From the NCBI GenBank assembly GCA_963827655.1, contig CAWHCF010000049.1, positions 352,001 to 416,000 of the forward strand: a DNA stretch of 64,000 nucleotides, written 5' to 3'. The notes under the pieces are model-generated. The model saw only the letters and a list, made by a program, of their open reading frames with translations. It did not search any database and was not told the DNA's origin. Numbering within the stretch: the first letter of the stretch is position 1; the number at the start of each line of letters is the position of its first letter. Positions 2,556-15,570 of this stretch are shown here, piece after piece. Both the position numbers and the translations under genes were made by a program. The stretch is from an uncultured Acidobacteriota bacterium. Lineage in GTDB: Bacteria; Acidobacteriota; UBA6911.

Positions 2556-2811
2556 GGTCATCTCCCTGGCCACTAATTTGTCGGCCTCAATTTGCTATTA
2601 GCGTTCCCTATTAGTTCTCTCCATCTCTTTCCGTCTTTATGCCGTCGTCTAAGAACAAAAGTTGGCTACCAGAGCACTAGCACATCTTCAGAAGAGCTTG
2701 TGCAATCCATGGAGCATTGCTCAAGGATTGTGTTGAAAGTGCTGCTAAGTCCCCGGCGGCGGGAGAGTGGCTCAGAAAGGAGCTTCGCTGAATTATCCAG
2801 GGGCACGCCCT

Positions 2812-2978
2812 CCGGCACCGACTGCCGTCTTTTTCAGGTGCCAGATGGCTGCTTCCACCTCACGCCGCTCGTGCGGGGCGAGGTCAAGCTGCTGGAACGC
2901 TGTCTCCGGCGTGGGCATGACGTGCCCAAAGCGCACCCCCTGGTTCCCAAGACGGCCCGCGAGCCCAACCATTTCGAT
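2812..2978 (-). pseudogene. Internal fragment of a radical SAM paralog of 5322-6371
   Basis: IEMVGLAGRLGNQGVRFGHVMPTPETAFQQLDLAPHERREVEAAIWHLKK aligns with AEMIELAARLGSSGVRFGHLMPTPETALRGLDLSPVQRRGVEAEIWRLQK; no CX3CX2C. Confidence 0.8.
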
Positions 2979-3243
2979 GTATAAGCATTTTCTATCCCCA
3001 AGAGGGTTGGAGAGGCAAGCGAAATTCCGGCGCGGGCGAGGGTCGGCAGGTCTGTTCGGTGGCACCTGTTGAGAATTCGACTTGACATCTCGGAAGCGGC
3101 ACATGACCATAGGGGCAGCTTACTTCACTCTGGAGCGGGTTCACTCTACTGGTGTTTACGCCTGCTGCGGAGGTAGCGCCCTTGTTCTGAGATGCGATAA
3201 GAAGAATTCTCCCCAAGCCAAACTCTGCCCGAGCTGGTAAGGG

Positions 3244-3826
3244 ATGGCCGGGTTGCCGCGGCCGGCAGCATTCAGCCACCAACGGTGGCCTGGGGGGATT
3301 CTTGACTTTCAGGGTAACGTGATGTTGGCTTGCTGTCGATCTTTTCGTACCGTCCGAGAACGCGTCGCCCAGGCATGGCTTGCCGCTCGTCTAGGCAGTT
3401 TCCTTTGTCTACTGCCGGTTCTTCTTCGTATCTACTCTCTTCCGCGCGTCCTGCAGCGGCTCGGGAAACCTTCGCAAGACCCCTGGGGGAGGTTTTTGCA
3501 GTTCGAATCAATTGTTCAGGTTGTCAGGAGGATGAGCAACTTGCCGTTTTTACGTCCCCCTCTCTTTCCCCGCTCCTGTCTTCTTCATTCTCTGATCTAC
3601 TACCACGCGTTGCGCGGGCGCGGGATACACCGTACAGATTCATTTTGGGATTCGCAGGACCGGGGCGGAACTGCAAGGTCATAGCTGGCTAACCATACCC
3701 AAAATGCCAGCCGCCCAAGGAAATCGCACGAAAGCGTTTAATACAATTTTTTCGTACCCTTCGACTTCATTCTTGTCTTCTGGCCAGGAGGCCAACAGAA
3801 TTGAGAACGAAGTTAAGTCCACTTAG
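3244..3826 (+). CDS. Lasso-type B2 leader peptidase (transglutaminase-like), one frameshift near 3625
   Basis: SCLLHSLIYYHALRGRG (catalytic Cys motif), then in the shifted frame VQIHFGIRRTGAELQGHSWL (catalytic His motif); stop TAG 3824-3826; start uncertain. Confidence 0.8.
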
Positions 3827-3839
3827 CATGGAGGCATCG

Positions 3840-4019
3840 ATGGACGAAAAGAAAACAGAAAATTCGCTCGAAGAACACGACCAGGAGAAATCTGTCGCTT
3901 TTTCGCCGCCACGCAAAAAGGCCTGGGAAGAGCCGAGGCTGTCGTATGTCAAACCCAAGCTTACGATACATGGGTCGCTGAAGGAGCTGACTGGTTTCTT
4001 CGGCGGATTTACTCCCTGA
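3840..4019 (+). CDS. RiPP precursor peptide, 59 aa (lasso-type leader, core (G)FFGGFTP)
   Basis: GGAGG RBS at 3830; MDEKK..KAWEEPRLSYVKPKLTIHGSLKELTGFFGGFTP; exact YxxPxLx3Gx5T leader; lies between B2 and kinase genes. Confidence 0.85.
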   Translation: MDEKKTENSLEEHDQEKSVAFSPPRKKAWEEPRLSYVKPKLTIHGSLKELTGFFGGFTP

Positions 4020-4169
4020 TGACTTTTGTACTTTTGGAGGAAAGGCGATCGCCGTCCTGTAAGCGGATAAGGATCGAGAGGACGGTCTGAGAGATGGGAC
4101 GCCAATCGGAAGGGCCGTCGAATCCCAAGTGCAAACGTAACGCCGCGCTACTGAATACCTCAGGCAAAA

Positions 4170-5303
4170 TTGAAGCCCATCCTTACCTACCCAAAGCAAC
4201 CGAGAAGAGGGAAGCGCACTTACTACGCCCTTCACGATCTCTTGCTGGAGGTGGAAGAAGAAACAGAGGGAGACGGAAAGGATCTGGCACGGCTTCTGTG
4301 CGACCTGACGTGTGTGCAAGCCGGGCCTCGGGCCCACAACCCAAGTCTTCGAATCACCGTCGCCAATGACGTGAATTTGCGCAGAATCCCGAGAGGTTGC
4401 CGGGAGGTTCTTCAGGCTGATGGATTCAGCGGGCTCGAGAGAGCGGGTGAGTTCTACTTGACCGACGGCTCATCTCTGTTTCGCCTGCGGCCTTTGCTGT
4501 CCCGGGGGGATGCTCAGATAGCTCCTTCGTTTTTTGATAAACCGCCAATCCTTCAAAGAAACTTCTGGGCTTTTGGGCTACTGAAACTCCTGAGACCCTT
4601 GGGTGTGTATAGTCTTCATGCCGCCGGTGTGGCCGCTAGCAAGGAACTGGGCGTCTTGATCGTCGGGGAATCGGGCAGTGGGAAATCCACTCTGGCGTTA
4701 GACTTGATCCGACAAGGCTGGAGCTACCTTGGGGATGATGCGGTACTCCTCCGGATGCAGCCGGAGGGCGTGGAGGCGCTGGCATTCCGTAGGAATTTCT
4801 ATGTCGATGCTAGCGCCGGTGGAGACAATTTAGATTTTCCCTTAGGCGAGCATGTGCCGGATTCCTTTGGGAGGAGAAGGCGAATGGTACATGTCGAAGA
4901 AGCCCGTCCAGAACAATACATTGCCGCGTGCATCCCGCGTGTTCTTCTATTCTCAAAAATCATTGCCGGCTCGCAGAGTACGCTCGCTCCTTTGGACCGT
5001 AGCATCGCCCTCAAGCGCTTGCTCGCCGCCAGTGGCCCGCAATTGTTTGACCGAAACACCATGGCTGAACACCTGGAACTCCTTAGTGTTCTCTTGCGGC
5101 AGACGGTTAGCTACCAGTTAACCGCCGGGCGCGACCTTTACCGCAATCCTGTCAAACTCGCGAATCTGCTTCGTGCTTCATTTCATAATTACGGTGACTT
5201 TGCGCCGCCGCGGGGGATGGCGGGCGTTGCATTGCCTCCGAGAGGAAAAAGAACACCGCCGCGCAAGCCAGCTTCAAGTAGCATAGTTATGAAAGAAGAC
5301 TGA
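4170..5303 (+). CDS. HPr kinase-like P-loop kinase (RiPP-associated)
   Basis: LHAAGVA, Walker A GESGSGKST, YLGDDAVLL. Confidence 0.8.
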   Translation: MKPILTYPKQPRRGKRTYYALHDLLLEVEEETEGDGKDLARLLCDLTCVQAGPRAHNPSLRITVANDVNLRRIPRGCREVLQADGFSGLERAGEFYLTDGSSLFRLRPLLSRGDAQIAPSFFDKPPILQRNFWAFGLLKLLRPLGVYSLHAAGVAASKELGVLIVGESGSGKSTLALDLIRQGWSYLGDDAVLLRMQPEGVEALAFRRNFYVDASAGGDNLDFPLGEHVPDSFGRRRRMVHVEEARPEQYIAACIPRVLLFSKIIAGSQSTLAPLDRSIALKRLLAASGPQLFDRNTMAEHLELLSVLLRQTVSYQLTAGRDLYRNPVKLANLLRASFHNYGDFAPPRGMAGVALPPRGKRTPPRKPASSSIVMKED

Positions 5304-5321
5304 GGCCCCAGGACAGACGAC

Positions 5322-6371
5322 ATGGCGCGACTTGTTATAGAGCTGACCAATCGGTGCAACCTGATGTGTGAACACTGCTTCGACGAGAGGCATGCTGGCA
5401 CCGGGGACCTGCCGTTGGAAGTCATCGACAAAGTGCTTGGGGAAGGGAAGAGTTGTGGTATCGACCACCTGGCTTTTACTGGCGGAGAGCCGACCATTCA
5501 TCGTCAGTTTCATGAAATCGTGCGTCGCGTCTGCAATGCTGCGTACACCTTTAGCCTCGTTAGCAACGGCACTACTTTTCCCGAAGTGTATCCGTTGCTT
5601 GTCGAGAACCAAAGATGGTTCAAGGGCGTAACCTTCAGCCTTGATGGAGCACGACAGGAAACCCATGATGCGTTGCGGGGAAATGGATCGTATCGTCGAG
5701 TAGCAAAGGCAGTCAGCATCTGTGCTTTCAAGAACATCCCCTTTACCCTCAATATGGTCCTGACTGCCAAGAATCGAACAGAAATAGCAGAAATGATCGA
5801 ACTGGCTGCCCGATTGGGAAGTAGCGGGGTGCGCTTCGGCCACCTGATGCCGACACCTGAGACGGCACTGCGAGGTCTCGATCTTTCCCCTGTGCAACGG
5901 CGGGGAGTGGAAGCAGAGATCTGGCGACTCCAGAAGAGTGCTCCGGTGCCGGTCTATATGGCGCCCGGATACTACAGCGAATCCCCCTTCTTTCCGTGTG
6001 CCCCCCTGGAACTTGAGGAATTCAACCTGGACCACCGGGGGAACGTTACCCTCTGCTGTCAGCTTTCAGGCTATTCAGGACCAGTATCCGGCACTGACGT
6101 CATAGGCAATCTGCGCGAGGTAAGCCTCGCCGAAGCGTGCAACAACTTCCGACTGCGAGTGGCTAGATACCTGGACGACAAGCGGGATCGGATCCGCCAA
6201 GGAGCATTTAGCGATCTGGACCATTTTCCTTGCTGGTACTGCATGAAATATCTGGACAAAGTGACCCGACTCAAAAACTTTCCACAGCACTCGTGGGCCC
6301 ACGAGAATGCCGAGATTATTGCTGAGGGAGTACATGTTCACTCTGGATCAAAAGCTTGGAGTTCACCCTGA
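5322..6371 (+). CDS. Radical SAM enzyme with C-terminal SPASM/twitch-like Cys motifs
   Basis: CNLMCEHC, FTGGEP, SLDGA..HDALRG.GSY; C-terminal FPC..GNVTLCC..C..CWYC. Confidence 0.92.
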   Translation: MARLVIELTNRCNLMCEHCFDERHAGTGDLPLEVIDKVLGEGKSCGIDHLAFTGGEPTIHRQFHEIVRRVCNAAYTFSLVSNGTTFPEVYPLLVENQRWFKGVTFSLDGARQETHDALRGNGSYRRVAKAVSICAFKNIPFTLNMVLTAKNRTEIAEMIELAARLGSSGVRFGHLMPTPETALRGLDLSPVQRRGVEAEIWRLQKSAPVPVYMAPGYYSESPFFPCAPLELEEFNLDHRGNVTLCCQLSGYSGPVSGTDVIGNLREVSLAEACNNFRLRVARYLDDKRDRIRQGAFSDLDHFPCWYCMKYLDKVTRLKNFPQHSWAHENAEIIAEGVHVHSGSKAWSSP

Positions 6372-6618
6372 GGTTGTTGATACCGAACTCGACACGAGTG
6401 AAACGGCTCTGCTCCACCTCGGAAGCAAAATCTACTACAGCCTCAACGCGACAGGAGTGCGGGTTTGGCAGGGTCTCAAGCAGGGACTCACGCTGAACCA
6501 GATCAGTCAGAGTCTTCAGGAAGAGTTTGATGTGGATGCTCAGACGGCCAACCGCGGTGTGCTTGAACTCGTTGAGGATCTCAGCCAGCAAGGGCTGGTT
6601 CAAGTTCTCGACCCATGA
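6334..6618 (+). CDS. PqqD family RiPP recognition element (RRE)
   Basis: LLHLGSKIYYSLNATGVRVWQGL..L.EEFDVD..V.ELVEDL.QQGLV; GAGGGAG RBS. Confidence 0.9.
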   Translation: MFTLDQKLGVHPEVVDTELDTSETALLHLGSKIYYSLNATGVRVWQGLKQGLTLNQISQSLQEEFDVDAQTANRGVLELVEDLSQQGLVQVLDP

Positions 6619-7134
6619 TCATCCGTCCGGCCAGGGGTGAAGATCTCCCGAGTTTGGCCGTCCTCTTTCGACAAGAGATCGCGTATCAGAGGCAGATCTG
6701 TCCATTTTGGGAGCTCTCGCCTCAGTTCGATTGTCTGAGCTTTTTGCAGACCAAGCTGAGCAATCCCCACGAGCGGCTGTTTGTAGCGGAGCGAAACGCG
6801 CAACTATTAGGTTATATCCTTGTCCGGGTCATCCAGGCGCCTCACCATCGTTTTCCGAGAAACATCTTTAGACATTTTTTTTCAGAGAAATCAACTCTTG
6901 CATTCATCCGGCCGCCCAACACTGGCTCCATTGAGGACTGCTATGTCGAACCACAGTCGCGGCGGCAGCGAGTGGGCAGCGCTCTGTTGAAACAGGGTCT
7001 TGAGATGGTTGGAGGCACAAGGGGTAAGGCACATAGAGCTCGCAGTCTCCGCGGGAAATGGAGATGGCATTGCTTTTTGGGAGAGGCAGGGCTTCGTCTC
7101 GTCTCGATTCCTTATGTTCAAGGAGATCGGCTGA
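6615..7134 (+). CDS. GNAT N-acetyltransferase (frameshift near 7000)
   Basis: MIIRPA..D, IEDCYVEPQSRRQRVGSALL; shifted frame GVRHIELAVSAGNGDGIAFWERQGF; ATGA overlap with PqqD stop. Confidence 0.85.
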
Positions 7135-7137
7135 ATT

Positions 7138-8397
7138 ATGCAATGGATTCCTCCGTTGAATCTATCTCCTGAATGGAGATTTGTACTCGCGTCCGCCCGA
7201 ACCGACATTCCTCTGCATGACCTGCAGATTGGTCTAGCTAGCCAGGATTTAGATTGGGATCGCGTGACAGAAATCTCATACCGGCATGGTATAGCGCCGC
7301 TGATCTATTACAACCTCAAGCGCCGCGAGGTTACCGGTGTCGTGACAAGCAGTGCGTTGAACAAATTGAAGGAATCCTATTACGGCAATGCAGCCAGAAA
7401 TGGACTTCTTTACCGTGAACTGCATAAGGTCCTGGGATCCCTCAAAGATGTGGGAATTGAGGTTATTGTGCTGAAGGGCGCAATGCTTGCGGAGACCGTA
7501 TATCCGAATCGAGCTCTAAGACCGATGAACGATATCGATCTTCTGGTCAGAAAGGAAGCTGTATCGAGAGCCGAGGATAAGCTCGCTGAGCTTGGCTACA
7601 GTTTGCGCGAAAGTCCCAGATCGAAAGAATGGTTTAAAGAATATCATCACCATTTACCTCTTGTCAGGTACGAGGCCGGTCCCCTCGAAATTCACTTGGA
7701 AGTTCATTGGGATATCCAAGGCCCAGGGAAACCGTTCAAGATAGGGATCGACAGAATTTGGAGCACAGCACTGCCGGTCACGATAGCCGGTGTTGAGTGC
7801 TCCGTGCTGTCCAGGGAGGACTTGCTACTGCATCTATGCCTCCATACCTGTCACCCCCACAAGTTGACCGGCGGGATAAGATCTCTTTGCGATATCGCCG
7901 AAACTATCCAGCGGTATGGTCGACAGATCGACTGGAATCAGTTACAGACTCGTTCGTCTCGATGGCGAATAAATCAATACGTTTACCTCACGCTGCGTCT
8001 CGCCAAGGAGCTATTGGGAGCGGAGGTTCCGGATCCCGTATTAGACTCTCTTGAGCCCCACGGCTTCGACCGCGGGCTGGTCCGGTGGGCAAAAGAAGAG
8101 ATTCTGGGAGACAAGGAAGCTTCCCCAATCTTTCCTGAGCTCGCGCAACTATGGAGCGGGCGCCGTATTAAAGACAGGTTGCAGATCCTGGTGAGGATAC
8201 TTTCCCCAAAATTAATCGCAAAGTATCAGGGAATTTCGCCGGCGTCAAAGAGAATCTATCTCCATTATCCGGCACGGCTCAAAACCCTTTTCTTGCGGTA
8301 TGGTCCGGTGCTGTGGGGCCTGGTTCGTTGCGATCGGAAACTAACAGCGGCAGCGGAGGGAAAAGCGCGATTGGCGGAGTGGCTGAATAAGTGCTGA
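7138..8397 (+). CDS. Nucleotidyltransferase family protein (NTP_transf_5-like, as in lasso clusters)
   Basis: VIVLKGAMLAETVYP..LRPMNDIDLLV, LEVHW, LLLHLCLH, LCDI. Confidence 0.88.
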   Translation: MQWIPPLNLSPEWRFVLASARTDIPLHDLQIGLASQDLDWDRVTEISYRHGIAPLIYYNLKRREVTGVVTSSALNKLKESYYGNAARNGLLYRELHKVLGSLKDVGIEVIVLKGAMLAETVYPNRALRPMNDIDLLVRKEAVSRAEDKLAELGYSLRESPRSKEWFKEYHHHLPLVRYEAGPLEIHLEVHWDIQGPGKPFKIGIDRIWSTALPVTIAGVECSVLSREDLLLHLCLHTCHPHKLTGGIRSLCDIAETIQRYGRQIDWNQLQTRSSRWRINQYVYLTLRLAKELLGAEVPDPVLDSLEPHGFDRGLVRWAKEEILGDKEASPIFPELAQLWSGRRIKDRLQILVRILSPKLIAKYQGISPASKRIYLHYPARLKTLFLRYGPVLWGLVRCDRKLTAAAEGKARLAEWLNKC

Positions 8398-8475
8398 CGT
8401 CAGGCGAAATTTGGATTCCTTACAGGCACTCTCGTTCGTTGAAAGCGTATCAAGAATTACCTGAAAGGAGTCATC

Positions 8476-9878
8476 GTGGCAAGTCGACTACGTGAGCCAG
8501 TTGACCGAGTCGAAGGATTCAGAGGCCGAACCCATCTACTTCTGTTTAGACGCCGAGAACGGATGATCTCGACCGTATTGTGCTTTGCGCCGTGACGGGT
8601 GGAGTGAGGCATTAATCGTCAGGTGTTGCACGAAGGAATCGGGCGTGAGGACGACGCTGAGGCGCAACGAAACTCGCGTGATATAGTGCGACAATCCGCA
8701 AAAGCTTGAAACACATCCTGGGCAAATTTTGACACAGCGAATGCACGTGAGCGTGTGTCAGGAAGGCACGGTGAGTCATGAATACACAGAACAGTAACAC
8801 GATCGGTTTCAACAGATGGTTTGGGATGATGTGCGTGTGGGGAGTGGCGGCCCTGATTGCGCTGACCGCGACGTCTGCGGAGGCCGCGGGATTTAACGTC
8901 AATAGCGAGGTGACGTTCACTCCGCTCCCCTCGACATACACGACGACCACCAGCACGACCGGCTGTCCGGCAGCATTTTCCGGAAAGTTCACCTTTACCG
9001 CCCTGTTAACGAATAAGACCGGAAGCCCGGCGATGCCGGGTCTGACCGTCCGCGTCGTGACGCTCACCAACGGTAATCTGCTGCTGGACCCGCAAACCAA
9101 CGCCGTCCTAGGCGGAGAGGGCGCGGAGATGACAGTACCCAAGGTGGAGCAGTATGCCGACGGCCTGCTCAGTCCGGGCGAGTCGGTGAACGTCCCGTTC
9201 TCGGTGTGCTTAAAGACATTTCAACCGTTTCAGTTTTTCGTGGACGTGTTCGGTGTCGTGACCCGATTGGTCAGCATCAACCGGTTTGGAACCGGGTCCG
9301 GCAATGGCTCTTCGTTTGTCCGCCCAGCGGCGATCAGCGCGGACGGCCGTTTCGTGGCATTCGACAGCGCAGCGAGCGATTTGGTGGCAAACGATACCAA
9401 CGGCTACCGACGACGTGTTCGTGCGGGATCTGCAGCTGGGGACGACTACGTTGGTGAGCATCAACCGGTTTGGAACCGGGTCCGGCAATGGCTCCTCCTT
9501 CGCCTCCGTGATCAGCGCGGACGGCCGTTTCGTGGCGTTTCCAGCGCAGCGAGCGATTTGGTGGCAAACGATACCAACGGTATACCAACGACGTGTTCGT
9601 GCGGGATCTGCAGCTGGGGACGACTACGTTGGTGAGCATCAACCGGTTTGGAACCGGGTCCGGCAATGGCTCTCGGTTGGTCTCCGTGATCAGCGCGGAC
9701 GGCCGTTTCGTGGCATTCAGAGCGTTGCGAGCGATTTGGTGGCCAACGATACCAACGGTACCAGCGACCTGTTCGTGCGTCCTGTCGCGCCCTGAGGAAG
9801 TGCGGAATTCAGGATCTTTCACAGGCGTTGCACAATCATTCACTGCCCCGACTTAGTGGTGGCAAGTCGACTACGTGA
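8476..9878 (+). repeat. Perfect 20-bp direct repeat GTGGCAAGTCGACTACGTGA at 8476-8495 and 9859-9878
   Basis: Both copies read directly; they bracket the 8778-9795 gene. Confidence 0.85.
8778..9795 (+). CDS. Secreted protein: signal peptide + ~120-aa shared domain + three TolB/PD40-like repeats (frameshifted)
   Basis: Signal peptide ending SAEA; 3 near-identical ~180-nt units LVSINRFGTGSGNGSS..ISADGRFVAF.S.ASDLVANDTNG..DVFVRDL. Confidence 0.8.
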
Positions 9879-9942: not shown

Positions 9943-12649
9943 ATGGAAGAGGAAGAAGTTCGGTTATCACAAGCAGCACAGGAGAGCACAAAAACATGGC
10001 GGGAGCCGAAGCTGAAGTGGCAAACCAAGGCAGAAAACAGTTGCAAGAGGCCGTCCGGCAGAGCGCTGCGTGTGTCTCTGGTGGCCTTAATCGTCTCTCT
10101 GCTGGCTCTCGGACACTTTGCTGGGGCAGGGGCTCTAGGGGCCGATCGCCACTCCGCCGATGGTACCCAGGGCGTTTTCGTCTCGCAGCCATCAGATGCG
10201 CATAGCGACAAGGACAACATCCTAAAAAACAGTCCGGCAGAAGATCGGGAAGCTACATATTCCTTTTATCAAGAATCAGGGACAGACGGATTCAGAGGTC
10301 AGCTTCTATGCCCCTACCTTTGGCGGAACGGTTTTTGTCACACAGAAAGGCGCATTCGTGTATGCCCTGTCCCAGGGGAAGGGAAAGAGGCAACAGGGGA
10401 GTCGCTTTGCGGGAGGAGCTGGTAGGGGGAGCAGTGAAAGCAGTGCAGGGAGAGGGCAAGACGACTACCAAGCTGAACTACTTCAAGGGGAATAACCGAT
10501 CGAAGTGGACGAATCACATTCCCACATACGATTGTGTAAGTCTGGGAGAAGTGTATGCGGGGGTGGAAGTGAAGCTCAAGGCCTATGGGCACACGGCGGA
10601 AAAGCTCTTTTATGTGCGACCTGGAGCTCGGCCGGAGCAGATCGAGCTGCGGATGCGAGGCGGGAAGGGATTAAAGATCACCAAGCAGGGAGAACTGGAG
10701 GTCGAGACGGAGCTGGGGACAGTGACATTCTCCAAGCCTGTGGCCTATCAGGAAGAGGGAGGCAAGCAAGAGTTGGTGGCGGTGGCCTATGTAGTAAAGG
10801 GCAGTGAGTACGGTTTTAAGGTTGGCGAGTATGACAAGACAAAAGAGTTGGTGATCGATCCTATCCTGGCGGCCACCTTCCTGGGGGGGAGTGGTCTTGA
10901 CGCCATTAGTGACTTCGCCCTGGACAGCATGGGGAACGTCTATGTGGCGGGTGTCACAACCTCTCCACGACTTTCCCCACATCGGGACGGGCTCAGCCGA
11001 CAATACCTTTGCAGGCGGCACTGAAGCTTTTGTCGCCAAGCTCGATGCCACTCTCAGCACGCTCCTGGCGGCCACCTTCCTCGGGGGAGTGGCTTTTTTG
11101 GTGAGGAGGCTGGGGCCCTTGCCCTGGACAGCGTGGGGAATGTCGATGTGGCGGGTTCCACAGACTCCTCAGACTTTCCCGGGGTCGGGGCGGGCTCGGC
11201 CGACAGCACCCTTGTGGAGGGCAGTGACGTTTTTGTGGCGAAGCTCGATGCCAATCTCCGCACGCTCCTGGCGGCCACCTTCCTGGGGGGGAGTATTCAA
11301 GACTTCGCTGGTGCCCTCGCCCTGGACAGCATGGGGAATGTCTATGCGGCGGGTTTCACCGTTCCGTCGACTTTCCTGGGATCGGAGTGGGCTCGGCCGA
11401 CAGTACCTTTGCTGGAGCCTGGGAAGGCTTTTGTGGCGAAGCTCGATGCCAATCTCAGGACACTGCTGGCCGTCACCTTCCTGGGGGGGAGTGGTGTTGA
11501 CGCCATTAATGCCCTCACCCTGGACAGCATGGGGAATGTCTATGTGGCGGGTTGGACAGCCTCCTCAGACTTCCCCGGGGTCGGGGCGGGCTCGGCCGAC
11601 AGCACCTTTGCTGGAGGCAGTGAAGCCTTTGTGGCGAAGCTCGATGCCAATCTAAGCAGACTGCTGGCGGCCACCTTCCTGGGGGGGAGTGCTGTTAATA
11701 ATGAACAGGTTCATGCGGCCTCGCCTTGGACGGCACGGGGAATGTCTATGTGACGGGCTTCACAGAATCCGCCGACTTTCCTGGGGTCGGGGGGCGGTTC
11801 GGCCGACAGCACCTTTGCTGGAGGCAGTGAAGCCTTTGTGGCGAAGCTCGATGCCAATCTTAGCAGACTGTCTGGCGGCCACCTTCCTGGGGGGGAGTGG
11901 TGTTGACTCCGCTCTCTGCCCTCGCCTTGGACGGCACGGGGAATATCTATGTGACGGGTGGCACAGGATCCACCGACTTTCCTGGGGTCGGGGGCGGTTC
12001 GGCCGATAGTCACCTTTGCTGGAAGCAATGAAGCCTTTGTCGCCAAGCTCGATGCCAATCTCGGCACTCTGCGAGCGGCCACCTTCCTGGGGGGAGCAGT
12101 AGTGAAGGCGCCGGTGCCCTCGCCCTGGACAGCATGGGGAATGTCTATGTGGCGGGTTCCACGGAGTCCTCAGACTTCCCCGGGGTCGGGGCGGGCTCAG
12201 CTGACGTGACCATTGCCGGAGGCAATGAAGCCTTTGTCGCCAAACTCGACCCGAATCTCTCTCGTGATGTTCCACTACCGGTGTGTAAGCAACAGATTGT
12301 CAATGACCTGGTCACCTTTGTTGTGACACAAACCTCCTTGGACCCTACCCCCGGCCCTCGTGCGCCCGCTGGCAGGTATACGATTACCGCCAGGCTCACC
12401 AACGCCAGCACGAAGGACATCTTCCAACCTCTCAAAGTGAACGTCGTGACGCTGTCCAATGGGAATAGGCTCGTCAGCGCCACAGAGGGGAACGGAGGGC
12501 CCGGCAGCAAGCAGGGCATTAATGCTGGCGCTGATGATACCCTGACCGCCAATGAGTCAGTCCTAGTCCAGTTTGTTATCGGATTGGTCGAGAGGAGCCC
12601 CTTCAGTTTCTTTGTAAATGTAGAGGGATGTGTTCGCGCTGACCCCTAG
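9943..12649 (+). CDS. Secreted SBBP-repeat 7-bladed beta-propeller protein, paralog of 1-2555 (frameshifted)
   Basis: GGAGGT RBS + ATG 9943; same N-domain; 7 LD(S/G)xGNxxVxG repeats at ~200-nt spacing (10920-12130); C-terminal shared domain ending FFVNVEGCVRADP. Confidence 0.85.
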
Positions 12650-12934: not shown

Positions 12935-13480
12935 ATGAGCCTACTGTCATGCCGGTTGAGAAACGTAGTGACGCTGGTGGCTTTCTTTGGCGCCTTTGCG
13001 ACCGTTGGACTTGCCCGTGACTGGAGCTTGAATCTGAGACAGGGGAATCAAGATTCAGCAAGATTCACTCTAAAGGTTAAAGACGGGAGGGTGTCGATTG
13101 GGGCGAAAGACATCTCCGTCGCAGAAATCTTCAAGGACCTCAGTCAGCAGACCGGAATACCTATTGAAAATACGCTGAGAACTGAAGAAAGGATCACGAT
13201 CCAGTTTAGCGATTTGCCGATGGCGGAAGCGGTGGCGAGGCTGGCTAACGTATTGATCTTCTATGACAAGAATCCTGCCGATCCAACATCTCCGCGGATC
13301 GTCAAGATCGTAGTATCTGCGAAGGGGAAGGAAGTTTCGGCTACCGCCCTCAAGCCTGCCCCTGCCGCCGGTGCGGTTGGAGAACCTGAGAAGACTCCGG
13401 CACCCAAGCCTTTCGAGTTTGTCTTGGACCCGTCCAAGCCTTCACAGGCGCCCGAGAAGAAGACTCGCAAGGAGAACTAG
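12935..13480 (+). CDS. Exported protein with secretin/TonB N-terminal (STN/N0)-like domain
   Basis: Signal peptide; VSIGAKDISVAEIFKDLSQQTGIPI..ITIQFSDLPMAEAVARL; Pro/Lys-rich tail. Confidence 0.6.
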   Translation: MSLLSCRLRNVVTLVAFFGAFATVGLARDWSLNLRQGNQDSARFTLKVKDGRVSIGAKDISVAEIFKDLSQQTGIPIENTLRTEERITIQFSDLPMAEAVARLANVLIFYDKNPADPTSPRIVKIVVSAKGKEVSATALKPAPAAGAVGEPEKTPAPKPFEFVLDPSKPSQAPEKKTRKEN

Positions 13481-13495
13481 TCTCCCGAACCTCAC

Positions 13496-13900
13496 ATGAG
13501 AAATTTTCTCTGGCTTGGCGTTGTCCTGGGGTTTGTCAGTATTCGGTTAGCTTCCGCAGGGGAGAAAGTCAGCCAAGGTGTTATTGAGGCTCTGCGGAGA
13601 GAAGGTGGAGCGAACGTAGTTGTCGCACTTGTAGAGCCTCTGTCCATGCGGGCGCCGCGGATTGATCTGCCCACACTGAGGAGCGAGATCGCGAGTATGC
13701 AGTCTCAGGTGTTGTCGACACTGGACCCTACGGATTACCGCGAGAGGCACAGGTATGAGACTATCCCCAGCTTGGCCATTTGGGTCGCGAAGGCGGGGCT
13801 TGCGAAGTTAATAGCGCATCCCAAAGTAGTGAGAATCGACCTGGATGTCGGCGGTACAGGGAAGCCTAGAAAAAGAAAGTGCGATAGGCACCGCAAATAG
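13496..13900 (+). CDS. Stand-alone subtilase signal peptide + prodomain (I9-like), duplicate of the N-terminus of 13939-15570
   Basis: Colinear and highly similar to the next gene up to IDLDVGGTG, then stops. Confidence 0.75.
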   Translation: MRNFLWLGVVLGFVSIRLASAGEKVSQGVIEALRREGGANVVVALVEPLSMRAPRIDLPTLRSEIASMQSQVLSTLDPTDYRERHRYETIPSLAIWVAKAGLAKLIAHPKVVRIDLDVGGTGKPRKRKCDRHRK

Positions 13901-13938: not shown

Positions 13939-15570
13939 ATGAAAAATTTACTATGGCTTGGGATTCTCCTGGGGTTTGTCGGTGTTCGATTAGCTTCCGC
14001 ACAGGAGAAAGTCGGTCAAGGCGTTATCGAGATTCTACAAAGAGAGGGTGGGGCGAACGTAGTCATCGCACTCGTGGAGCCTCCATCCATGCGGGCATCG
14101 CAGATTGATCTGCCCATCTTGAGGAGCGAGATTGCCAGTCTACAAGCTCAGGTGTTATCCACCTTATATGCTTCGGATTACCGTGAGAGACATAGATTCC
14201 GAGCTGTGCCCGCCTTGGCGGGCCGGGTAAGCAGGGCTGGACTTGCAGAACTTGTAGCAAATCCCAACGTGGTGAAAATCGACCTGGATGTTGGCGGTAC
14301 CGGGAGCCTAGCAAACAGTGTCCCGCTCATTCGTGCTGATGATTGGCACGCACTCGGAATCACGGGTAGGGGGGTGGTAGTGGCCGTACTTGATACGGGG
14401 ATTGATACGGATCATGTCGACCTAGCCGATGATCTTGTTCACCAAGAATGTTTTCTTGATTTCGACGGAGCAATTAACGGGGTAGGGCGCTGTCCCAACG
14501 GTAGTGATAGACAATCGGGAGACGGCGCGGCAGAAAGCGGACTAAACCACGGGGTGATGACGACAGGGATAATCACTTCACGAGGGACCGTGAGTTCAGT
14601 TGGCGTTGCACCGGATGCTAAAATCGTGTCGATTAAGGTCCTCGATAACACCCAACCTGCTGGCATATTCGCATTTTTCTCAGAGTTAGTAGCCGCGTTG
14701 GATTTCATTATCAACAATCGCCCCGATGTGAAAGTCATCAATATGAGCCTTGGGACGTTTGCTTTGTTCGCGGGTAACTGTGATAGCGCGACAGCCTTCA
14801 ACATGGCCGGCGCAGCTGCCATCAATACGTTACGGAAAAATGGGGTAATCGCCTTTGCGGCTTCAGGTAATAATGGATCAGGAACTCAGATGACGTCTCC
14901 TGCCTGTATCAGTAACGTGGTATCGGTGGGAGCTACGAATAATGTCGATAATGTAGCAGCTTTCACAAACAGTAATGCTTTTCTCGATCTTATGGCGCCC
15001 GGGGTTTATATCACATCTACGGCGTTGGCTAATGGAATCGCAACCGGGTCCGGAACGAGCTTCGCAAGTCCTCACGCGGCGGGTTGTGCCGCTCTGTTCG
15101 TTGATGCGGGGATAGCTGTAAGTCCTGCCCAGATTGAGGCGCGCCTAAAAGCATCGACGGTACGGATTACTGATCCGAAAAATGGTCTTGCATTTCCAAG
15201 GCTCGACTGCTTTGTTGGTGTGGAGATTGTTAACGACTTGGTCTCAGTGGCTCCATTAGTCACTTCCTCAAGTACTACTCCGGTTCCGAATGGTCCTGCT
15301 GGAATATTCGGTATTATAACAACCTTTACCAACACCAGTTCCACTTCTATACTGAATCCATTCTTTGGAGTTGTAGAACTCTCCGGTGGAAACTTGTTGC
15401 TCAATGCCGATAGTGGTCCAGGTGGAGTTGGAGCCACTTTGACTCCTAATGTAGGCGCTGATCGGATTTTATCACCGGGAGAATCTTTTAATGTGATTTT
15501 TATAGTTGGTCTTCAATCCAGTCAGCGTTTCACATTCTTTGTCAATCTGTCAGGAGTGCCAGATCCATAA
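13939..15570 (+). CDS. Secreted S8 subtilisin-like serine peptidase with C-terminal shared domain
   Basis: VAVLDTGI, NHG, AASGN, GTSFASPH triad motifs. Confidence 0.93.
   Translation: MKNLLWLGILLGFVGVRLASAQEKVGQGVIEILQREGGANVVIALVEPPSMRASQIDLPILRSEIASLQAQVLSTLYASDYRERHRFRAVPALAGRVSRAGLAELVANPNVVKIDLDVGGTGSLANSVPLIRADDWHALGITGRGVVVAVLDTGIDTDHVDLADDLVHQECFLDFDGAINGVGRCPNGSDRQSGDGAAESGLNHGVMTTGIITSRGTVSSVGVAPDAKIVSIKVLDNTQPAGIFAFFSELVAALDFIINNRPDVKVINMSLGTFALFAGNCDSATAFNMAGAAAINTLRKNGVIAFAASGNNGSGTQMTSPACISNVVSVGATNNVDNVAAFTNSNAFLDLMAPGVYITSTALANGIATGSGTSFASPHAAGCAALFVDAGIAVSPAQIEARLKASTVRITDPKNGLAFPRLDCFVGVEIVNDLVSVAPLVTSSSTTPVPNGPAGIFGIITTFTNTSSTSILNPFFGVVELSGGNLLLNADSGPGGVGATLTPNVGADRILSPGESFNVIFIVGLQSSQRFTFFVNLSGVPDP

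Follow-up and report, generated by a model that had tools for sequence, protein, structure and literature searches.

A candidate radical-SAM peptide pathway with lasso-type leader handling in an acidobacterial operon

The window analyzed here is a stretch of 64,000 nucleotides from a contig (C49 below) in the 8.18-Mb genome of an uncultured Acidobacteriota bacterium. Positions 3244-8397 of the window (C49:355244-360397) carry seven co-directional, tightly packed genes on the + strand, recognized from the open reading frame (ORF) listing, translation and family scans. In order, they encode a B2 peptidase, a precursor peptide, an HprK-like kinase, a radical S-adenosylmethionine (rSAM) enzyme, a PqqD-type recognition element (RRE), a GCN5-related N-acetyltransferase (GNAT) and a PF14907 nucleotidyltransferase. 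A preliminary description, made from the sequence alone, had proposed this operon, and all seven genes were recovered at these positions and on this strand. We consider it probable that they encode a pathway to a ribosomally made, post-translationally modified peptide (RiPP) that is not a lasso peptide and that took over the leader handling of lasso-peptide biosynthesis.

The operon and its reading frames

The operon comprises the following genes, with only one base between the B2 stop and the precursor start, and with overlaps between rSAM and RRE and between RRE and GNAT.

3244-3826, + strand: lasso-type B2 leader peptidase (transglutaminase-like Cys protease); a 1-nt frameshift at ~3619-3624 divides the gene
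3828-4019, + strand: precursor peptide, 63 amino acids (aa), with a lasso-type leader and the core GFFGGFTP
4170-5303, + strand: HprK-like P-loop kinase (Pfam Hpr_kinase_C, 36.3 bits, cut-off 33.3)
5322-6371, + strand: rSAM enzyme with a SPASM/twitch-like C-terminal domain (Radical_SAM 81.1 bits; SPASM 21.3 bits, cut-off 21.5)
6307-6618, + strand: discrete PqqD-type RRE (Pfam PqqD 63.1 bits, and tblastn; homologues start at 6334)
6615-~7134, + strand: GNAT acetyltransferase (Acetyltransf_1, 36.8 bits), with a 1-nt frameshift at ~7001-7006
7138-8397, + strand: PF14907 (NTP_transf_5) nucleotidyltransferase (221.1 bits)

The C-terminal B2 fragment in the window stayed below the cut-off of two models, with 22.1 bits for Transglut_core3 (cut-off 26) and 17.4 bits for lasso_biosyn_B2 (cut-off 33). 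Intact B2 homologues passed lasso_biosyn_B2 (NF033537, same cut-off) in all four cases tested, at 47.6-81.2 bits; judged by these relatives, the operon peptidase is a true lasso B2. Kinase homology spans ~4203-4224 to ~5180, with scores far below the NCBIfam HprK_rel_A/B cut-offs, and the N-terminal ~140 aa of the kinase had no family match. Against the NCBIfam lasso PqqD chaperone models the RRE reached 49.7 bits (cut-off 70) and 46.0 bits (cut-off 80). The rSAM enzyme carries its CX3CX2C motif (residues 12, 16 and 19) right at the start, with no RRE fused to it; among solved structures, SkfB and PqqE came closest in sequence. Five further Cys residues, C226, C245, C246, C304 and C307, were invariant in 36 of 36 sequences, as was CX3CX2C. 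These five invariant C-terminal Cys suggest a reduced SPASM or twitch domain.

The B2 and GNAT genes are present, as had been described, but each is frameshifted in the window, which the preliminary description did not mention. The frame of 3244 encodes the N-terminal part of B2; after the switch at ~3619-3624, that of 3245 encodes the C-terminal part. Alignments with B2 homologues follow frame 1 as far as 3624 and frame 2 from 3623 onward. In tblastn alignments, GNAT homologues change frame at 7000-7006. The best-matching DNA sequencing runs, which correspond to soil metagenome contigs, share 0.21-0.28 of the sampled window words, and no RNA run was among those listed; we compared the window with relatives' contigs from four soil metagenome runs. 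One base was absent at 3619 in one relative contig and at 7003 in two. Since the relatives' contigs do not have the extra base, the two breaks are probably assembly indels of one extra base each and less probably real mutations of the strain. The neighboring DUF7948/SBBP genes likewise lie in several ORFs (1-2502 on the – strand and 9943-12649 on the + strand).

The precursor 3' end is covered by two close-relative contigs. No indel within 3828-4019 is among the differences listed, with four of one contig's 16 differences and two indels falling outside those listed, and we therefore judge the precursor to be full-length and not shortened by assembly error. The differences listed within the gene, at 3980 and 4013, are both synonymous and at third codon positions, and the longer precursor that would have spoken against the preliminary description was not seen in the relatives' contigs.

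Promoter-like and terminator-like sites were in no excess over shuffled sequences in window positions 2900-8900 (3 versus 3.0 and 7 versus 6.1, respectively). An attenuator in the 166-nt spacer after the precursor was considered and is not claimed: the spacer folded no better than shuffles (z 0.03).

A conserved precursor family and its lasso-type leader

The window leader fits the pattern YxxPxLx3Gx5T exactly and is followed only by GFFGGFTP and a stop, both as previously described. The precursor passes the NCBIfam model lasso_leader_L3 (21.4 bits, cut-off 19); no second FFGxF[ST]P ORF occurs in the genome. The preliminary description had suggested looking for a conserved FFGxF(S/T)P precursor next to homologues of the rSAM enzyme, and such precursors were found: 87 precursor ORFs, with 79 distinct combinations of leader end and core and 75 distinct cores, adjoin homologous enzymes in loci from many phyla. 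This recurrence of the same precursor type next to homologous enzymes indicates that the window precursor is more than a chance ORF.

The family around it is large. Relatives of the rSAM enzyme in the protein collection numbered 909 at E ≤ 0.001 (identity 65-91% among the 120 listed), and scans with the rSAM alignment (A1) gave at least 200 matches in contigs of species-representative genomes and at least 513 in metagenome contigs. We analyzed 159 loci (L013-L171), 127 of them with an rSAM at least 40% identical to that of the window; 37 of these had at least 4 kb on both sides and are called well-flanked below. According to record labels, some of which look unreliable for metagenome-assembled genomes, the hosts include Acidobacteriota, Nitrospirota, Thermodesulfobacteriota, anammox and other Planctomycetota, Trueperaceae, Chloroflexota, Entotheonella and others. 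Within a sample of the window's own phylum, an rSAM match at E ≤ 1e-60 was found in 5 of 401 genomes, the other four being 37-39% identical, so the distribution of the family is patchy.

The order B2, precursor, kinase, rSAM, RRE, (GNAT), transferase recurred in dozens of loci searched by tblastn with the window proteins; anammox and some Nitrospira variants place B2 after the RRE. Among the 37 well-flanked loci, the kinase was found in 36, the RRE in 34, the precursor in 32, the transferase in 27, B2 in 26 and GNAT in 4, with all five core parts present in 21. The kinase lay directly upstream of the rSAM gene in 71 of the 80 loci with enough flank.

Across the family (alignment A3), the leader contains two tandem [W/F/Y]xxPxL motifs and a Thr at position –2 to the predicted cut; 29 of 58 members matched lasso_leader_L3 at E ≤ 0.01. 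The two motifs are of RRE type, WxxPxL and then F/YxxPxL (window 3903-3965), and the operon has one discrete RRE. The core follows as F-F-G-x-F-(S/T)-P after a spacer of 0-8 residues and is 6-20 residues long in most members. Its tail is absent in 27 of 65 cores and otherwise mostly 1-13 residues, with one of 25. Core positions were counted in 65 cores anchored on G-x-F. Phe occupies position 1 in 59 and position 2 in 57 of these, Ser/Thr position 6 in 55, and Pro position 7 in 57. All 10 anchored cores without Ser/Thr at position 6 carry it at position 4; Ser/Thr thus always flanks the third Phe (65 of 65, a count that overstates independence because the sequences are related). The 10 further cores that could not be anchored mostly retain F-F-x-x-F-(S/T)-P.

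Wherever GNAT occurred (n = 9 loci), the precursor was predicted to begin with Phe (6) or Gly (4) after cleavage, and in GNAT-less loci the predicted +1 residue was Gln in 25 of 46. Provided that B2 cuts after Thr-x, as it does in lasso peptides, this pattern fits N-terminal capping by acetyl or pyroglutamate.

Trueperaceae-type variants (L050, L052, L055, L057 and L169) have leaders that begin with Tyr and cores such as LQTFFGTFSPPASD. In some of them, two precursor genes alternate with large genes for DUF11/LRR/SpaA/Big_7 surface proteins. These variants also have a 204-aa protein with no family match upstream of the kinase, and carry no c6 domain (described below).

A lasso peptide requires an Asn-synthetase-like cyclase and an acceptor residue, and the preliminary description had reported neither. 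Both absences held over a wider range, and the other parts of that description open to computational testing agreed with the data as well. The window's genome has seven matches to the Asn-synthetase family PF00733, none of them on C49, and no Asn synthetase was seen among the recurrent neighbor families or ten large + strand neighbor ORFs tested. In all five other genomes tested, with contig numbering confirmed by c6 matches, the locus and the nearest PF00733 match were at least ~200 kb apart, and up to more than 2 Mb. Large + strand ORFs next to distant variants were considered as hidden cyclases and rejected, as they proved to be tRNA synthetases, an iron-containing alcohol dehydrogenase and DUF11/LRR/SpaA/Big_7 surface proteins. 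An acceptor Asp/Glu at core position 7-9, counted with cleavage after Thr-x assumed, was present in just 5 of the 75 distinct cores and absent from the window core. With no cyclase near the loci and so few acceptor residues, the predicted product is not a lasso peptide.

The same absence of a cyclase could mark a decayed lasso cluster that has lost this gene and is heading for loss, and the B2 and GNAT frameshifts, the rSAM gene fragments described below and the fragmented neighboring genes would all fit. We regard this explanation as highly improbable, however, since dozens of loci from different phyla repeat the cyclase-less architecture with an intact B2, the short core is conserved and so rarely has Asp/Glu at positions 7-9, and relatives' contigs are without the extra bases at both frameshift sites.

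Secreted neighbors and the c6 domain

Query-based labeling of the locus ORFs revealed two further recurrent neighbors of the operon, which the preliminary description did not include. One is c6, a domain of ~125 aa that in most cases forms the C-terminal end of secreted proteins otherwise unrelated to one another. Its carriers include an S8 protease, DUF7948/SBBP proteins, Kelch and lactonase propellers, VWA + PKD proteins, CBM9 proteins, sortilin/BNR proteins and choice-of-anchor Q proteins. c6 had no Pfam or NCBIfam match. It is predicted to fold as a beta-sandwich (predicted local distance difference test score, pLDDT, 94.9), and this fold had no PDB match at E ≤ 0.001, the best being a CBM2 cellulose-binding domain at E 6.5e-3 and TM-score 0.52. 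A reading of c6 as CBM-like was not adopted: the Atlas search gave nothing beyond unnamed clusters and leads to CBM_2, whose values of 0.82-0.83 fall short of the counting level, and we keep it only as a lead. The protein library contained 1767 representative clusters with c6 at E ≤ 0.001 and 372 at E ≤ 1e-30. The c6 proteins and one further recurrent neighbor, c0, are placed as follows around the operon of the window.

C49:344552-344914 and C49:348564-348917, outside the window, – strand: further c6 matches (profile)
1-2502, continuing past the window start, – strand: secreted DUF7948/SBBP beta-propeller ending in c6 (Pfam; several ORFs)
C49:351968-352186 and 351837-351965, reaching window base 186, – strand: c6 of the preceding protein (profile)
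8778-9635, + strand: secreted repeat protein with c6 near its N-terminus (8889-9263 = C49:360889-361263; 142.7 bits)
9943-12649, + strand: frameshifted DUF7948/SBBP beta-propeller (Pfam) ending in c6 (12281-12634 = C49:364281-364634; 122 bits)
12935-13480, + strand: c0 protein, a signal peptide and a conserved domain (tblastn 30% identity over 182 aa; family hidden Markov model, HMM, 103.6 bits)
13939-15570, + strand: secreted S8 subtilase (Peptidase_S8, 137.7 bits) ending in c6 (15196-15567; 158.1 bits)

All seven c6 profile matches in the 8.18-Mb genome (six proteins) fall within C49:344552-367564 and no more than 11 kb from the operon; three of the proteins are encoded upstream (– strand) and three downstream (+ strand). 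Nine operon-bearing genomes, this one among them, gave c6 matches, and of the 24 matches of at least 40 bits, 22 lay in the operon locus or within 0.5 kb of it. No c6 match at E ≤ 1e-6 was found in 395 of the 401 genomes of the phylum sample. A Trueperaceae genome gave only two weak and distant c6 matches, and the Entotheonella genome, which has rSAM and RRE only, gave none.

We modeled the c6 domain of the S8 protease (alignment A2) in complex with the 38 C-terminal residues of the precursor (alignment A3). The complex scored 0.82 (0.76, 0.84 and 0.82 in separate runs), and three controls scored 0.00-0.01. Of 80 solved complexes, 58 attained the mark used for this score, as did 2 of 110 mismatched pairs. 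The docking runs had at least 45% of contacts in common, with a pLDDT of 47-50 for the partner. The modeled interface on the precursor consists of residues 29-38, that is, the core and the two residues before it, and the c6 residues contacted are 13-40, 60-61 and 104-118. The tightest modeled contact joins Phe112 of c6 to the third Phe of the core, both of them invariant. A core bound as a strand would place positions 4 and 6 on the same side, so that Ser/Thr would be possible at either. As a prediction, the model supports binding of the core peptide to the c6 domain.

This genomic exclusivity, together with the one structure model, is what the c6 link rests on, and we find the case evenly balanced that the finished peptide is a ligand of the c6 domain and that the operon and the c6 proteins, among them proteases, propellers and adhesin-like proteins, form one system. 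A more specific version sees in the matured FFGxF(S/T)P peptide not a free antibiotic but a ligand dedicated to docking on c6, possibly tethered through its phosphate-linked group; this version we hold tentatively, a little below an even balance. Were it true, the resulting peptide-and-receptor-domain system would parallel cohesin-dockerin or donor-strand docking on a RiPP basis, and c6, a previously undescribed domain family of 1767 representative clusters, would gain a ligand.

Several observations weigh on the other side. With the single-sequence query used, c6 was found in just 18 of the 37 well-flanked loci and was absent from 19, and Trueperaceae-type variants carry other surface proteins in its place. 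In each of two genomes, one c6 gene sits on a different contig and has no operon gene within 10 kb of it, and weaker c6-like domains (32-63 bits) occur in very large proteins of five other phylum-sample genomes, away from any operon. The docking used an unmodified peptide and unpaired alignments, and a hydrophobic strand may dock on a beta-sandwich meaninglessly. These points would fit c6 proteins that are mere neighbors through a shared island or regulation, the docking being a false positive and the peptide an antibiotic or signal acting elsewhere; that no exporter was found, that the partner pLDDT stayed below 50, and that two mismatched pairs reached the mark fit this as well. We nevertheless think such an explanation unlikely. 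All seven c6 matches of the window's genome lie close to the operon, likewise in other phyla; the N-terminal domains of the c6 proteins vary (S8, VWA/PKD, CBM9, propellers) and c6 and the operon stay together; and the modeled interface is exactly the conserved core, with controls near zero.

The c0 protein is ~180 aa long with a signal peptide and is usually encoded just upstream of B2, most copies having a Phe-rich C-terminal tail with a conserved PEPFKFEFDP-like motif. The window copy, 4.5 kb downstream of the operon, is the best family-HMM match in the genome; the copy in L015 lies at 6723-7274. c0 had no Pfam or NCBIfam family match, and its domain resembles STN/secretin-N by eye only, with no match by any tool. 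Between c0 and the S8 protease, a 134-aa ORF (13496-13900, + strand) is a near copy of the N-terminal signal/propeptide part of the protease and represents a partial tandem duplication. A histidine kinase and a sigma-54-dependent response regulator are encoded at C49:336572-339240 (+ strand; L172:2572-5240), upstream of both the operon (by ~16-19 kb) and the outermost c6 gene (by ~5 kb).

Degenerate rSAM fragments were found among these genes, all on the – strand: residues 157-223 at window 2775-2975 (61% identical, tblastn), residues 220-312 at C49:351440-351714, and residues 220-273 at C49:348288-348448. Each of the latter two lies directly downstream of a – strand c6-protein gene. It looks as if units of a c6 gene and an rSAM 3' end were duplicated, or as if c6 genes were inserted into a second rSAM copy, each time at one and the same point. 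In loci L013, L062 and L100, a DUF7948/c6 gene lies between rSAM and RRE.

The proposed pathway and its relation to known systems

In the pathway that we propose, the RRE would bind the leader and present the peptide. The rSAM enzyme would modify the invariant Phe residues of the core or positions beside them, our leading guess being a C-C or C-O crosslink. The kinase would phosphorylate the Ser/Thr flanking the third Phe, its invariance making it the obvious site; in paeninodin-type lasso peptides and in linear polyphosphorylated peptides (LPPs), the kinase phosphorylates a core Ser (PMC13381572, in the passages used here). The PF14907 enzyme would build on the phosphate, as proposed for both of these groups. 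B2 would cleave after Thr(–2)-x, and the new N-terminus would be capped, by GNAT where it is Phe or Gly and by pyroglutamate formation where it is Gln. We infer the chemistry of the rSAM, kinase and transferase steps. The Phe crosslink, Thr phosphorylation followed by nucleotidylation, and N-acetylation would be its details, and the Ser/Thr residues flanking the third Phe and the match between GNAT and the N-terminal residue count indirectly in their favor.

Against this reading stands the distance of the rSAM enzyme from every characterized enzyme, because of which its reaction is not readable from homology: the best curated NCBIfam matches were 62-77 bits versus cut-offs of 265-650, and a structure model with pLDDT 81.6 had BlsE, SkfB, SuiB and PqqE as nearest PDB folds at a TM-score of only ~0.6. 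Of the 37 well-flanked loci, 11 had no B2 and 10 had no transferase, and B2 and GNAT are both frameshifted in the window assembly. No exporter recurs in the neighborhoods of the family loci, which counts against contact between a cytoplasmic product and the secreted c6 proteins.

If the rSAM enzyme does not crosslink Phe, the product could be a linear, LPP-like phosphopeptide in which the rSAM mark is an epimerization, a hydroxylation or a change to Ser/Thr. The kinase is the part most tightly tied to the rSAM gene (36 of 37 loci; directly upstream in 71 of 80), the SPASM-like domain has just five invariant Cys, and the enzyme has no specific likeness to a known crosslinking enzyme. In LPPs, the kinase, RRE and PF14907 transferase act on linear peptides with no cyclase, according to the parts of PMC13381572 drawn on here. 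Conservation is nevertheless strongest on the three Phe and the Gly, not on Ser/Thr alone. SPASM/twitch rSAM enzymes with a PqqD partner typically form crosslinks (PqqE, MftC and SuiB), which also counts against a linear product. We therefore think this outcome unlikely.

A small-cofactor precursor, as in pyrroloquinoline quinone (PQQ) or mycofactocin biosynthesis, with the cofactor used by the neighboring propeller proteins, appears improbable. It would fit an rSAM/SPASM-like enzyme with a discrete PqqD, a peptidase and a short conserved peptide amid many propeller neighbors. The enzyme, however, scored 62.1 bits against the PqqE model versus a cut-off of 381, and 73.8 against MftC versus 265. 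Moreover, Tyr, Glu, Trp and Cys are all missing from the core, its spacers and tails differ greatly between members, and the c6 carriers include proteases, VWA proteins and CBM9 proteins, which suggest no shared cofactor.

A non-lasso pathway of the proposed kind would add a RiPP class in which a radical-SAM enzyme and a kinase work with re-used lasso leader recognition (RRE and B2). Soil and sediment bacteria commonly carry the family, with record labels naming Nitrospira, anammox Planctomycetes, Acidobacteriota and Entotheonella. Its conserved seven-residue motif is a compact substrate for learning the reaction of a new rSAM enzyme. To our knowledge, RiPPs seldom come with an obvious target. 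Here the receptor domain is possibly encoded in cis, a testable partner next door that would make the biological role approachable and might yield a small peptide-and-domain binding pair.

The preliminary description did not recognize the operon as a described class. No description of the family was found in the literature searched, with subscription papers and supplements outside its reach, and atlases of rSAM RiPPs may list the family unnamed; as far as searched, it is apparently undescribed. What the preliminary description had overlooked is that LPPs provide a described precedent for cyclase-less lasso machinery. A 2026 fosfazinomycin preprint, in the portion consulted, also has YxxP leaders in use outside lasso peptides. 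In the RRE-Finder study (PMC7470986), the passages at hand report ~300 proteins matching the discrete lasso RRE model that co-occur with an rSAM and not with a cyclase, and treat them as false positives. The present family may be among these proteins; the same passages give no precursor, core motif, kinase link or product.

PQQ, mycofactocin and SynChlorMet systems resemble the operon in having an rSAM with a C-terminal Fe-S domain and a discrete PqqD, and SynChlorMet also has an HprK-like protein. They have neither a lasso-type leader nor B2. The SynChlorMet cassette, whose make-up we take from NCBIfam model descriptions (ScmC, HprK-like; ScmD, PqqD; ScmE and ScmF, rSAM enzymes), gave scores below all cut-offs: 76.5 versus 400 for ScmE, 70 versus 400 for ScmF, 23.2 versus 100 for ScmD and 25.3 versus 125 for ScmC. 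In triceptides, an Aromatic-X-X motif is crosslinked by a 3-CyFE rSAM enzyme. The F-(S/T)-P of the core could fit this motif, and the rSAM enzyme scored below the cut-off of every curated RiPP maturase model.

With paeninodin/pseudomycoidin-type lasso peptides, the operon shares the YxxPxL...T-type leader, the discrete PqqD RRE, a B2 of the same NCBIfam family, the HprK-like kinase and the PF14907 transferase. It differs from them in the absence of an Asn-synthetase-like cyclase, in its short core and in having an rSAM enzyme within the invariant operon core.

The closest described system is that of the LPPs (Popov et al., Nat Commun 2026, PMC13381572). As the relevant passages describe them, LPP clusters encode an SpI peptidase, an RRE, an HprK kinase that phosphorylates a core Ser, an NTP transferase and an MsbA exporter, with a YxxP leader and no cyclase; the final product and role were unknown to the authors, and LPPs and paeninodins alike were described as restricted to Bacillota. 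All seven operon genes of the window belong to families other than SpI-type (SipW-like) peptidases or MsbA-like exporters, and no peptidase S26 or ABC exporter appeared among the Pfam-scanned recurrent neighbors, a scan with no HMM search aimed at either. On the basis of those passages, the two systems share the HprK-like kinase, the discrete RRE, the PF14907-type transferase and the lack of a cyclase. Of the polyphosphorylated core Ser that characterizes LPPs, the present family offers one hint, its invariant Ser/Thr next to the third Phe. Whereas LPPs combine an SpI-type signal peptidase and an MsbA-like exporter with long, variable cores (45 aa in the studied case) and have no rSAM or B2, the present family has a B2 peptidase, an rSAM enzyme and a short fixed core, and it spans many phyla.

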